Positions 8,101 through 12,149 of a stretch of 32,000 nt of DNA are shown here, piece by piece (position 1 is the stretch's first letter; every line of letters starts with the position of its first letter). The stretch comes from Candidatus Thorarchaeota archaeon. Its GTDB lineage: Archaea > Asgardarchaeota > Thorarchaeia > Thorarchaeales > Thorarchaeaceae. The notes beneath the pieces are model-generated. The model searched no databases. It saw nothing but the letters and a program-made list of their open reading frames with translations, and was not told where the DNA came from. Location: positions 240,001 through 272,000 of the forward strand of contig SHMX01000003.1 in the NCBI GenBank assembly GCA_008080745.1. Direction: 5' to 3'. The translations under genes and the position numbers were made by a program.

Positions 8101-8961
8101 ATGGCATTCGAAGCAAAACTTAATCTTGTGCCAATTGATAGAGCACAAAAAGAATATATCGAGAGCCTCCTTCCAATTGAGATTGGTATGTTTGGAGGAA
8201 GCGGAAATTATGATCCAACAGTTATTGAAGATCCTGCAGAGGTGAAAGTCTTTACCCCCTACGGAGCAACTTCAGACCACTTCATTTTAGGAAAGGCAAA
8301 AGGCAGAAGTTTTGTATTTCTTGCACGTCATGCAAGGGGTCATACTATTCTCCCACACCAAATCAACTACCAAGCAAATATTTGGGGAATGAAAGCTCTA
8401 GGAGTTAAGAGGATTATCAGTCCAGCAGCTTGTGGTAGCTTACAGCCAGAACGTATCAAATTAGGCGAATTTGTGATTGCGGATCAAATTTTCGACAGAA
8501 CATTTGGTCAACGCAAAGATACATTCTTTGAGGGAGGGCCCGTAGGTCATCTGCCATTTGCAGAGCCCTTCTGTTCTGAACTCAGGAAAGTTGCAAAAGC
8601 GACAGCAGATTCACTTGAGTACAAGGTTCATGAAAAAGGAACTTACGTGTGTATCAACGGTCCGCGATTTTCCACACGAGCAGAATCAATGTTCTTCCAC
8701 AATCAAGGATGGGATGTCATTGGTATGACTGCATATCCTGAAGCAGCTTTAGCTCGTGAGGCGGGTATATGCTTTGTTAATATTTCAATGCCTACAGACT
8801 ATGATGTCCATGCAGAAGAGCATGTCACACATGAGATGGTTCTCAAGACAATGTCAAAGAATGTTGAGAGAGTACGCAAGCTGACTTTTGCAATGATTGA
8901 TAATATTCCCAAAGATGCAGGCTGTGATTGTCAGACTGCTATGATAAATGGCCTTTTTTAA
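8101..8961 (+). CDS. mtnP: S-methyl-5'-thioadenosine phosphorylase (PNP/MTAP family)
   Basis: GGSG, TPYG, LARH, ANIWGMKALG, GPRFSTRAES, DVIGMT, EAALARE, TDYD. Confidence 0.9.
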   Translation: MAFEAKLNLVPIDRAQKEYIESLLPIEIGMFGGSGNYDPTVIEDPAEVKVFTPYGATSDHFILGKAKGRSFVFLARHARGHTILPHQINYQANIWGMKALGVKRIISPAACGSLQPERIKLGEFVIADQIFDRTFGQRKDTFFEGGPVGHLPFAEPFCSELRKVAKATADSLEYKVHEKGTYVCINGPRFSTRAESMFFHNQGWDVIGMTAYPEAALAREAGICFVNISMPTDYDVHAEEHVTHEMVLKTMSKNVERVRKLTFAMIDNIPKDAGCDCQTAMINGLF

Positions 8962-9810: not shown

Positions 9811-9853
9811 TATAAAAAGAACAAAGATCGTGAGCCCGAATAATCGGGCCCAC
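9811..9853 (-). terminator. Intrinsic-terminator-like hairpin plus U tract downstream of microprotein 1
   Basis: Minus strand GTGGGCCCGA-TTAT-TCGGGCTCAC (10 bp, one G-U pair), then GATCTTTGTTCTTTTT. The wobble only works on the minus strand. Confidence 0.65.
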
Positions 9854-9892
9854 ATATCCAAAATCTACTTCTATGACATCTGGGAATGAGGC

Positions 9893-9991
9893 TTACCAAT
9901 CATCGTCTTCGTCGTCTTCCCAGTCCTCGTCATCATCATCTTCCCAATCGTCGTCGTCTTCTTCCCAATCTTCGTCGCGATATGGTTTCAT
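9893..9991 (-). CDS. Acidic Trp-repeat microprotein 1 (32 aa)
   Basis: Hand translation MKPYRDEDWEEDDDDWEDDDDEDWEDDEDDDW*. SD GAGGTGA (10002-10008) 10 nt upstream. Synonymous GAT/GAC and GAA/GAG mixing. Downstream terminator-like hairpin. Below the ORF-track length cutoff. Confidence 0.8.
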   Translation of the reverse strand: MKPYRDEDWEEDDDDWEDDDDEDWEDDEDDDW

Positions 9992-10116
9992 TTTGGATTT
10001 TTCACCTCACGACAGTGAGAGTAAAAGTATGAGTTAAATTTACGCTCCGATATTTGTAGTTTTTATTAGGTCCAAAGTTTCGATATAAGACTTATAATGG
10101 CTTATTTAATAATTAT

Positions 10117-10135
10117 AGAGGTTAACATAACCTCT
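10117..10135. promoter_or_regulatory. Operator-like palindrome in the divergent AT-rich intergenic region
   Basis: AGAGGTTA-ACA-TAACCTCT, perfect 8-bp arms with 3-nt spacer. Confidence 0.35.
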
Positions 10136-10264: not shown

Positions 10265-11155
10265 ATGAATAGTATAGGGAGTAGAAGAGCTATGACACGA
10301 CCAAGAACACGTACCCCTGAATCCCCTGTACATGTAATTGTCCAAATTGCCAAATCAAAGCAAAGGGCGCCCAAGATACCCGAGTCAGAAGAGGTTGAAA
10401 AGATAGCGAAAGGAGTTTATCGAATTTTTGGCAAACCAGAAAGGCACAAACATCATTTTCATGACATTCCTCATATTGCATTCCGAAGAACAAAAGAAAT
10501 TCCAAGCACACGTTCCAAATCTCTTGACGATGTACTAAGAAGAACATATGCGTTGGTGGTATACAGATACGAAAATCCCACAGCTCAACAGAAGAAACGA
10601 ACTCAAAGATTGATTAGACGATCCCCGTGTATTCGTCTCCGGCCGGGTGTACTTGTCTTTCCGCATCTAAAGGCAAAACAGATGTCAAAAGTATATCAGA
10701 AGAGAGATAAGACCAAGCTATTCACCGCTAAAGAATTCGCTTCAAAAATGGAAGAGTTTGGAGCGAAGGTAATACGATGGGGACGTCTGAAAATATCAGG
10801 ACCCCGTAGTTTTGGATTACTTGAGCAATCATTAAAGAATATGATAGAAAGCGAGGAAAAGGCAATTGTTGACAAATTCAAGCAATTGAAGAAAGAGGCC
10901 AAAAATTCAGAGGTTTCGATTAAGAAACTCAAAGAGAGATACAGAGAGCTTTCTGGAAGATATAAACTTCAGAAAACCTCCTGTGAAGTGATTAGAGAGG
11001 TCTGGAAATTCGACTGTGAAAAACAACTAAGGAGAGTATACAACATCATGCTCCAGACACGAAGAGCTATATCTGAACAACAATCAAGTATGAAAAGACT
11101 AACTGAGAGGGAAACTATCGAAGAATCATCTGCAGTTGATCACCAGTCGTCATAA
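10265..11155 (+). CDS. Strongly basic hypothetical protein; central region resembles a Cas2/PaaX-central/ChrB_N ferredoxin-like fold, followed by coiled-coil helices
   Basis: About 70 K+R versus 34 D+E by hand count. YALVVYRYENPT...RTQRLIRR...RLRPGVLVFP fits the beta-alpha-beta pattern by eye. The start may be the Met at 10292. Confidence 0.7.
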   Translation: MNSIGSRRAMTRPRTRTPESPVHVIVQIAKSKQRAPKIPESEEVEKIAKGVYRIFGKPERHKHHFHDIPHIAFRRTKEIPSTRSKSLDDVLRRTYALVVYRYENPTAQQKKRTQRLIRRSPCIRLRPGVLVFPHLKAKQMSKVYQKRDKTKLFTAKEFASKMEEFGAKVIRWGRLKISGPRSFGLLEQSLKNMIESEEKAIVDKFKQLKKEAKNSEVSIKKLKERYRELSGRYKLQKTSCEVIREVWKFDCEKQLRRVYNIMLQTRRAISEQQSSMKRLTERETIEESSAVDHQSS

Positions 11156-11244
11156 TCCTCTTCGATGTCATCATCCCAAAACTCTTCTGGCCAATCCTCG
11201 TCCGATTCATCGTCATCATCCGGAATTTCTTCATAAACTGGCAT
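11140..11244 (-). CDS. Acidic Trp-containing microprotein 2 (34 aa)
   Basis: MPVYEEIPDDDDESDEDWPEEFWDDDIEEDYDDW*, preceded by GAGG 8 nt upstream of the ATG. It is the C-terminal part of the tracked 11140..11439 ORF. Confidence 0.7.
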   Translation of the reverse strand: MPVYEEIPDDDDESDEDWPEEFWDDDIEEDYDDW

Positions 11245-11348
11245 AAAACATTCCTCATAGAACTTACTGAACAAGCTGTTATTTTTCTTATGCATCCAAC
11301 ACCGAAGGAGTCTTAGCAGGTATGAACAATTTGATAATGTGGAGAGAC

Positions 11349-12149
11349 ATGACAAGGATAGCAGTTGGACAGATGCAACCAAAGATTCTAGATAAACATG
11401 AAAATATACTTCGTACAAAGGAAATTTTGGATAAAGCATTGGAAGAAGATGTAGAAGTTCTTGTTTTGCCAGAGCTGGCTAATTCTGGTTATGCTTTTCA
11501 CAGTAATCTGGAAGTGAGATTGATTGCTGATGAAATCCCCGATGGGGAATACTGTCGGATTCTTGCCGAATGGTCAGAAAATAGCCGAATGATTGTTGCT
11601 GGTCTCTGTGAATCTGATGGAAAACACGTTTACAATTCAGCAGTAGTTTTTGGTAATGGAGAATATATTACGACATATAAAAAAATCAACCTATTTAATA
11701 GGGAACTTGATTGGTTCGAACCGGGTCAAACAGAACCTCCCGTTTTTACATTTGCAGGAAACCGATATGGAGTTATGATTTGTTTTGATTGGGCATTTCC
11801 CGAGATAGCAAGAATCTTAGCACTGAAAGGTGCACAGATCATCCTTCATCCAGCAAACCTAGTTCTACCATATTGTCAAAATGCAATGGTGACTCGATGC
11901 ATTGAAAACCGTGTTTTTGCAGCAACCGCCAATCGAATCGGGGAGGAACGAGGTTTGAATTTTTCCGGCATGTCTCAGATAGTAAATCCAAGTGGAGAAG
12001 TGATTGTAAGAATTCCGGATGGAGAAATTGGACTGCGATATGTGGATATCAATCCGCAGAAAGCAGATAATAAGATGATTACAGAGAGAAATGATGTCAT
12101 TAGAGACAGGACACCTGAATTGTATGACCGATTAGTCTTTAGGCGGTGA
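11349..12149 (+). CDS. Nitrilase/carbon-nitrogen hydrolase family protein
   Basis: Catalytic triad motifs LPELANSGY (E), YKKINLF (K), ICFDWAFPE (C). Start moved to MTRIAVGQ after GGAGAG. Confidence 0.93.
   Translation: MTRIAVGQMQPKILDKHENILRTKEILDKALEEDVEVLVLPELANSGYAFHSNLEVRLIADEIPDGEYCRILAEWSENSRMIVAGLCESDGKHVYNSAVVFGNGEYITTYKKINLFNRELDWFEPGQTEPPVFTFAGNRYGVMICFDWAFPEIARILALKGAQIILHPANLVLPYCQNAMVTRCIENRVFAATANRIGEERGLNFSGMSQIVNPSGEVIVRIPDGEIGLRYVDINPQKADNKMITERNDVIRDRTPELYDRLVFRR

Follow-up and report, generated by a model that had tools for sequence, protein, structure and literature searches.

In a 32,000-nucleotide (nt) window of a Candidatus Thorarchaeota genome (assembly GCA_008080745.1, contig SHMX01000003.1, positions 240,001 to 272,000; "the window" below means this whole stretch), a 32-codon open reading frame (ORF) on the minus strand, which we call micro1, encodes a hyper-acidic peptide punctuated by tryptophan (Trp). 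Its conservation across related genomes indicates that micro1 is very probably a real, conserved and unannotated coding gene. Less firmly, its linkage to an adjacent gene for a strongly basic protein suggests that the peptide is probably the functional partner of that protein. The source assembly, from an Asgard archaeon, comprises 3.16 Mb in 19 contigs with 41% GC.

The micro1 frame runs from an ATG at 9989–9991 to a TAA at 9893–9895 and translates as MKPYRDEDWEEDDDDWEDDDDEDWEDDEDDDW. With aspartate or glutamate at 23 of its 32 residues and Trp at positions 9, 16, 24 and 32, the peptide carries a net charge of -21. The start codon is preceded by a Shine-Dalgarno (SD) motif, GAGGTGA; since the full heptamer stands ahead of only 0.5% of the long ORFs in this genome, its presence 5' of micro1 is not a background feature. 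Farther upstream lies an A/T-rich, TATA-like region, and the putative promoter block GAGTTAAATTTACGCT is identical in this genome (G000) and in G001. About 39 nt past the stop codon, an 11-bp hairpin (9854–9829, minus strand; folding z = -3.5 against shuffled sequences) is followed by the T-rich ATCTTTGTTCTTTTTAT, and in a same-genus genome another hairpin, again followed by a T tract, sits at the equivalent place after the micro1 orthologue. The original prediction, made from the letters of the window, had described the 32-residue peptide, its acidic and Trp content, the SD motif and the hairpin with its T tract, all of which we confirmed in the sequence.

Frames of this kind are rare. Genome-wide, three stop-to-stop frames have a tail at least 55% acidic that ends in Trp (four under a looser rule), and two of them, micro1 and a second acidic Trp micro-ORF that we call micro2, flank the same basic gene (Table 1). 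With so few comparable frames in the whole assembly and two of them on either side of one gene, micro1 is beyond what chance would produce. The exact peptide is present, unnamed, in the ESM Atlas, where its neighbours are also unnamed (scores 0.81–0.85), and is absent from a 15-billion-protein collection. No PDB sequence matched micro1 or micro2 by phmmer, and no Pfam family, DSS1_SEM1 included, matched the peptides in an hmmscan of six of them or in a scan of the genome.

To find orthologues, we searched the flanks of basic-protein homologues from related genomes and public contigs. micro1-type ORFs were found in about 50 loci, with the ATG, SD motif and stop codon kept, and an acidic micro-ORF adjoins every detectable basic-protein homologue with an assembled flank, apart from two exceptions considered below. 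The orthologues are 25–37 residues long, with runs of Asp and Glu interrupted by Trp every 6–8 residues; the consensus in Thorarchaeota is M-x-F-D-D-E-D-x-W...D-D-D-D-D-D-W-stop. In most orthologues (G)AGGTGA stands 5–10 nt before the start and TTTTAC/TTTAGA boxes stand 30–45 nt upstream of the ATG, while the nearby intergenic DNA is otherwise poorly conserved. Aligned with the same-genus genome, the micro1 ORF is 93% identical in nucleotides, compared with 78% for the FNR-like gene, 68% for the basic gene and 48–67% for intergenic DNA, which makes it the best-conserved DNA of the locus. Substitutions summed over six independent close pairs number 6, 7 and 49 at the first, second and third codon positions. 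The original prediction had asked whether relatives keep the ORF, SD motif, start, stop and aromatic spacing while varying at third positions. They do, and its claim of a microprotein gene equipped with expression signals of its own is borne out across these loci.

Could the GA-rich tract instead be an untranslated DNA or RNA element, or a slippage-prone repeat, in which the open frame is incidental? The micro1 DNA is a degenerate tandem repeat with a 21–24-nt unit (about 3.5 copies, 74% match by Tandem Repeats Finder), and GAN repeats keep five of six frames open by construction. Moreover, an antisense Ser-rich frame has the same wobble positions as micro1, so third-position bias by itself cannot choose between them. 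It is the sense frame, however, that retains the ATG, the SD motif, the TGG codons and a stop immediately after the last TGG, and the ATG, the GAGGTGA at fixed spacing and this stop are kept across families whose flanks cannot be aligned. Length differences among 32 distinct orthologues never break the frame. We rejected the antisense Ser-rich ORF (9873–10037, plus strand) because its start is not conserved, an antisense ATG being found in only a minority of orthologues. An untranslated element is, in our judgement, very improbable. The acidic codons of micro1 are mixed (GAC 9, GAT 7, GAA 6, GAG 1), which the original prediction had held against a simple microsatellite. That argument stands insofar as the tract is not a pure microsatellite, but the DNA is still a degenerate repeat; given both facts, micro1 is best described as a diverged repeat of a 7–8-codon Trp-acidic unit. 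The wording of the original prediction, "multivalent linear-motif peptide", is still a fair description.

Two other readings concern the role of so short a product. A leader peptide or attenuator was rejected because the downstream gene varies among relatives, being FNR-like here and a convergent MTAP gene or none elsewhere. The peptide might also be a carrier of the LysW/ArgW kind or a substrate of C-terminal modification: LysW shares its small size, its acidity and a Trp close to the C-terminus, and some micro1 orthologues end in Glu. Such endings are exceptional, however: among the 32 distinct orthologues the last residue is Trp in 26, Phe in 2 and Glu in only 2. Unlike LysW and ArgW, the micro1 peptide has no Cys or Zn-ribbon and no C-terminal EDWGE with a terminal Glu, and neither an ATP-grasp ligase of the lysX/argX type nor lysine or arginine biosynthesis genes lie nearby. 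We give this possibility hardly any credence.

The peptide gene keeps company with the basic gene across several Asgard lineages, and this linkage is our strongest result. In Thorarchaeota (family f1), it lies upstream of the basic gene and divergent from it, with a median gap of 261 nt, and the locus sits between the MTAP and nitrilase genes. In families f12 (one looked-up member of which is labelled Hodarchaeota by NCBI) and f16, it lies downstream of the basic gene on the same strand, with no MTAP, nitrilase or FNR-like gene nearby. Further pairs were found in f6, f21, a second f12 genus and Atabeyarchaeia, one genome of which carries an acidic ORF with Phe/Leu in place of Trp, and two of four remote metagenomic homologues of the basic protein adjoin a K-rich/E9-10-W ORF. 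The linkage therefore persists although gene order, orientation and other neighbours differ among lineages.

A survey of 151 Asgard genomes for the codon pattern [DE]5-W-stop gave a similar picture. The pattern occurs in 21 of 26 f1, 13 of 19 f12 and 3 of 5 f16 genomes and is nearly absent elsewhere, and a reversed control pattern was near zero. Members of the basic family were found in 16/26 f1, 17/19 f12, 3/3 f13, 3/5 f16 and 2/3 f21 genomes. Pattern and basic gene occur together in 32 genomes, the pattern alone in 10, the gene alone in 14 and neither in 95, counts that come from related rather than independent genomes. The two are no more than about 1.2 kb apart, and mostly less than 0.6 kb, in at least 24 genomes.

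This distribution bears on the analogy, raised by the original prediction, with eukaryotic short linear motifs, in which the peptide would act as a WASP/cortactin/Arpin "A" motif on an Arp2/3-like machine or as a W-acidic motif for TPR proteins. The likeness is a visible one: those "A" motifs are acidic runs with Trp at or near the C-terminus, and the acidic tail of Arpin has a C-terminal Trp. ARPC4 (PF05856), the sole Arp2/3 subunit searched, was nevertheless found in 0/26 f1, 0/19 f12, 0/5 f16 and 0/3 f13 genomes, the four searched families that have the peptide and basic-protein pair, whereas ARPC4-like genes are common in other Asgard families (4/4, 12/13, 6/6 and 7/7 genomes) and so are anti-correlated with the peptide and its basic neighbour. 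Nor did we find the micro-ORF linked to any actin-related or TPR gene. The Arp2/3-type analogy finds no support in this evidence, and we regard a eukaryote-like linear motif as scarcely credible.

Duplications add to the case for linkage. In three f12 genomes the basic gene is present twice, and a different type of peptide accompanies each copy: type A follows the scheme ...Y-x-x-P-P-E-D-D-E...D-E-E-D-W and type B the scheme M-x-P-P-R-Q-K-R-Q-Q-E-E-E-E-W...P-E-E-D-W. In a maximum-likelihood tree the basic genes that adjoin type B group together with 100/100 support, separately from those that adjoin type A, so peptide and basic gene have diverged as well as duplicated together. Judged from the genomes compared, there is genetic linkage between the peptide gene and the basic gene, which were duplicated as a unit. 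It is for this linkage and co-duplication, and not for eukaryote-style analogies, that we favour the basic neighbour as the partner of micro1, a protein that the original prediction had named as one candidate for pull-down.

The basic protein itself belongs to an orphan family. No Pfam family matched it. Its 47 database homologues, all "hypothetical" and all from Asgard metagenome-assembled genomes or metagenomes, have net charges of +21 to +35, and an exhaustive profile search recovered 105 clusters among 1.84 billion representatives. By these searches the family has no members outside Asgard archaea, apart from a few unplaced metagenomic relatives. An AlphaFold2 model built from an 18-sequence alignment (predicted local distance difference test, pLDDT, 86; predicted template-modelling score, pTM, 0.78) comprises an N-terminal beta-rich domain, a ferredoxin-like domain of beta-alpha-beta-beta-alpha-beta topology and a bundle of three long helices. 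The top Foldseek match, a weak one (E 7.5e-3), is E. coli PaaX. PaaX_M (PF20803) is matched by one of 18 family members (E 1.1e-4), with a faint PaaX_M record in one remote homologue, and residues 85–292 superpose on ChrB_N-only clusters of the ESM Atlas with a template-modelling (TM) score of 0.65–0.76 by matched row. PDB fold searches returned only generic ferredoxin-fold (Z ≤ 6.6) and spectrin-like three-helix matches, and the N-terminal half modelled alone gave generic ferredoxin-fold matches only, Cas2 among them (Z 5–6.6). Only two residues, R115 and P133, are invariant in the family; they lie in the basic motif QQKKxxQRLxxR...IRLRPG.

From these models the partner would be a ChrB_N/PaaX_M-like protein without the PaaX winged helix, the likeness being weak. 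It resembles ChrB_N and PaaX_M-PaaX_C proteins (PF20229, PF20803, PF08223) in having a Cas2-like ferredoxin domain followed by a helical bundle. Unlike ChrB and PaaX, it lacks both the PaaX winged helix and ChrB_C, carries a further ferredoxin-like domain at its N-terminus and is much more strongly basic. Basic-protein matches in L003, L004 and L014 (genomes G002, G017 and G012) contain one in-frame TAG near the 5' end, and that in L011 (G018) a TAA; the true N-terminus may be shorter in these cases. We also considered a type II toxin-antitoxin pair, with a Cas2/VapD-like toxin and an acidic antitoxin, which the locus does not fit: the genes are divergent in Thorarchaeota, the basic family has no conserved Asp at the Cas2-type nuclease position, and the locus is single-copy and syntenic across genera.

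The likeness of the basic protein, in fold and profile, to the regulators PaaX and ChrB also invites a regulator-target reading, in which this protein would be a transcription factor controlling the micro-gene while the peptide acts elsewhere, in cation buffering, in condensates with a Lys-rich micro-peptide or on other proteins. Divergent genes that share an intergenic region of about 260 nt are typical of such pairs. A Lys-rich micro-ORF of about 21 codons (MAKKKPAKK...KKKKK) does follow directly 3' of the acidic micro-ORF in many relatives from four families; it is absent from the window and from the genus, the nearest look-alike in this genome being MAKDKKGKKDKKPKPKK at C10:10735–10788 (minus strand). 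The partner, however, has no PaaX winged-helix DNA-binding domain, and we found no conserved operator in the divergent intergenic region: a near-perfect palindrome between micro1 and the basic gene, AGAGGTTA-ACA-TAACCTCT at 10117–10135, is not conserved in the same-genus genome. In f12 and f16, moreover, the peptide gene is downstream and co-directional, so that no shared promoter region is conserved. A regulator and its target is thus a quite unlikely account of the pair.

If the basic protein is instead the partner, how might the peptide act on it? We propose that micro1 is translated into an intrinsically disordered polyanion with Trp anchors every 6–8 residues, usually including the last, and that it forms a cognate pair with the adjacent ChrB_N/PaaX_M-like protein. 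The peptide would lie along the positive surface of its partner, where charge would hold it in place and the Trp side chains, together with the carboxylate of the terminal Trp, would serve as anchors. It would thereby neutralise the partner and vie for that surface with nucleic acid or other polyanions, as an antagonist, switch or escort that works in trans. Taken as a whole, this scheme of binding and competition is tentative, and we would put its chances a little short of even.

We infer binding from the genetic coupling, from charge complementarity and from a precedent in E. coli. The peptides have net charges between -16 and -26, with -35 for the Atabeyarchaeia form that lacks Trp, and the partners have +17 to +41. 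A profile of the 32 orthologues finds exactly one PDB sequence, the C-terminal tail peptide of ObgE, EEDDEDWDDDWDEDD (8bft_B), aligned as DDEDWDDDWDEDD. The disordered ObgE tail EEDDEDWDDDWDEDDEE binds the positive DNA-binding groove of YbiB, and requires its two Trp for nanomolar affinity, and ObgE blocks DNA binding by YbiB (PMC10123104). An acidic, aromatic, disordered ligand on a basic surface is therefore known already, and micro1 may be a free-standing counterpart of an ObgE-type tail; the peptide family itself is undescribed in the literature that we searched, on Asgard DSS1 and on small acidic proteins of Thorarchaeota.

Several observations weigh against this partnership or its mechanism. 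Two loci with full flanks (L099, L100) have no acidic ORF beside the basic homologue. Conversely, the basic gene is missing from the 10 genomes that have the pattern alone, and at least four Thorarchaeota genomes in which profile searches detect no basic homologue still have one of these acidic-Trp micro-ORFs, situated between MTAP and nitrilase. Such peptides can therefore work without the basic gene. The charges of peptide and partner do not covary significantly (rho -0.30, p 0.09), and none of the 47 homologues is a fusion of peptide and basic protein or carries an acidic tail. Nucleic-acid binding by the partner, on which competition would depend, is suggested only by its charge and its weak ChrB_N/PaaX likeness.

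The persistence of such micro-ORFs in genomes without the basic gene favours the main rival explanation, namely that the peptide is a general acidic adaptor like DSS1/Sem1, a hub for docking on several partners that are basic or offer an aromatic pocket, with the basic neighbour as one client or merely co-regulated. The window itself holds a second candidate of this type in micro2, which shares 16 nt with the 3' end of the basic gene and runs divergently from the nitrilase gene. Other Thorarchaeota have related ORFs with an EEWGDEW or PEEFWDD core, among them genomes without the basic gene (L049, L051, L086), and the micro2 core (WDDD-x-EED-aromatic) may resemble the WDD region of DSS1.

Acidic-Trp tails on unrelated DNA-binding proteins suggest a shared docking motif. 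In this genome, a 100-residue protein without a Pfam match (C1:65669–65971, plus strand; L094:1670–1972) joins a Cys-rich Zn-ribbon head by a basic linker to an acidic tail of 60 residues that ends DDEDW, and its orthologue in G132 (L091) has an identical ending. An ArsR-family helix-turn-helix protein (PF01022, 8e-8; C2:16613–17488, minus strand; L093:1614–2489) combines a basic, coiled-coil N-terminus with an acidic tail whose last residues are EEEDLEDDW. The gene next downstream of it ends DDVDDLDWDDEE. The TATA-binding protein (TBP) of this genome (C4:345976–346491, minus strand) ends EGEDWD, and that of another Thorarchaeote, G122 (L092:1501–2109), ends ...EGEDWGQNESDDDEDW, a microprotein-like acidic tail with Trp as its last residue.

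The comparison with DSS1 itself fares less well. PF05160 gave no match at E ≤ 10 in the genome scan or in the hmmscan of six peptides, although the composition filters of HMMER may hide weak matches. The peptides are about half the length of DSS1 and have no C-terminal helix. The known partners of DSS1 are PCI proteins and BRCA2, and a search for PCI domains (PF01399) returned one match just above the cut-off and three below it, all weak and of the winged helix-turn-helix type, and control prokaryotes match as well. Tight linkage to, and co-duplication with, one gene family better fit a dedicated partner. We accordingly consider a general adaptor unlikely and retain the adjacent basic protein as the favoured partner.

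A broader scheme can be drawn, which we think quite doubtful. Hyper-acidic Trp peptide, cognate basic ChrB_N-like protein and, in many lineages, the poly-Lys micro-peptide would constitute a vertically inherited Asgard polyelectrolyte module, a disordered, ultra-high-affinity switch that mimics nucleic acid and acts on chromatin, RNA or transcription factors. The tails of TBP and of the ArsR-type and Zn-ribbon proteins would plug into it, and it would be a prokaryotic counterpart, possibly a forerunner, of DSS1 and prothymosin-alpha.

The other genes around micro1 in the window encode MTAP, an FNR-like reductase, a nitrilase and MazG, and the neighbours in relatives are different and unrelated. 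MTAP and nitrilase genes are adjacent in Thorarchaeota without the basic gene and in the other Thorarchaeota bracket the insert of micro-ORF and basic gene; they could encode an MTA (5'-methylthioadenosine) phosphorylase and an omega-amidase-like enzyme of methionine salvage. In one genome labelled Hodarchaeota, a 22-codon Arg/Lys ORF, MRKKWKKKRARKIRRKRRKKQK (L069:2229–2297, plus strand), lies near the peptide and basic genes; it looks like ribosomal protein eL41 and is probably unrelated to them.

Table 1 Features of the micro1 locus in the window, and Lys-rich micro-ORFs of related loci
Feature	Position	Strand	Basis or remark
micro1, acidic Trp peptide ORF	9893..9991	-	ORF translation and about 50 orthologous loci
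Shine-Dalgarno GAGGTGA	10002..10008	-	10 nt 5' of micro1 ATG
A/T-rich TATA-like putative promoter region, AGCGTAAATTTAACTCATACTTTTACTCTC on the minus strand	10017..10046	-	putative promoter function
Terminator-like hairpin and T tract	9812..9854	-	folding
Divergent basic gene, 296 amino acids (aa), 24% K+R, net about +36 to +38	10265..11155	+	alternative start 10292 gives 287 aa
micro2, second acidic Trp micro-ORF, MPVYEEIPDDDDESDEDWPEEFWDDDIEEDYDDW	11140..11244	-	34 codons, ends DYDDW
MTAP (PNP_UDP_1)	8101-8961		
CN-hydrolase/nitrilase	11322-12149		
Lys-rich micro-ORF	L009:2747-2812		
Lys-rich micro-ORF	L010:994-1059		
Lys-rich micro-ORF	L012:2781-2855		
Lys-rich micro-ORF	L028:1952-2014		
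Lys-rich micro-ORF	L069:1228-1299		
Lys-rich micro-ORF	L081:1389-1442		
Lys-rich micro-ORF	L101:2731-2799		

Genes as short as micro1 lie at the lower size limits of gene callers and search tools, or beneath them. Here such a peptide is among the best-conserved elements of its locus and is common to several Asgard lineages, including a group labelled Hodarchaeota, which are placed close to eukaryotes. Were the peptide to bind and neutralise the basic protein, the pair would offer a compact case of disordered-polyelectrolyte regulation in archaea, and an experimentally tractable one, since synthesis of the peptide is feasible and the partner gives a good model. An Asgard-specific orphan family of about 105 sequence clusters would also gain a function. 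Motifs of the acidic-Trp type, mostly treated as eukaryotic linear motifs, appear here as the products of separate genes in the prokaryotes most closely related to eukaryotes.

How do these peptides compare with known acidic ligands? DSS1/Sem1 (PF05160) is likewise a small, disordered, very acidic stand-alone product, and its conserved Trp and Phe insert into pockets of its partners. In contrast to DSS1, which has about 70–90 residues, two acidic/aromatic sites and a C-terminal helix, the shorter micro1 orthologues are acidic and aromatic throughout. The E. coli pair of ObgE tail and YbiB (PDB 8BFT) shares with micro1 a Trp within a run of Asp and Glu, and the ObgE peptide of that entry almost equals the repeat unit found here. 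The ObgE tail, however, is part of a 390-aa bacterial GTPase, whereas micro1 would be a free-standing product. The two partners have unrelated folds (TrpD2 for YbiB, ChrB_N/PaaX_M-like for the basic protein), homology is lacking, and binding is an experimental result for ObgE and YbiB but a prediction for micro1. The tip of bacterial SSB and the tail of phage T7 gp2.5 provide a further parallel: both are acidic C-terminal tails with a terminal aromatic residue that mimic nucleic acid and dock on basic patches, and micro1 has the same acidic run and terminal aromatic with a free carboxylate. Those tails are tethered to OB-fold proteins and carry one aromatic residue each, whereas peptides of the micro1 type are untethered and carry three to five spaced Trp.

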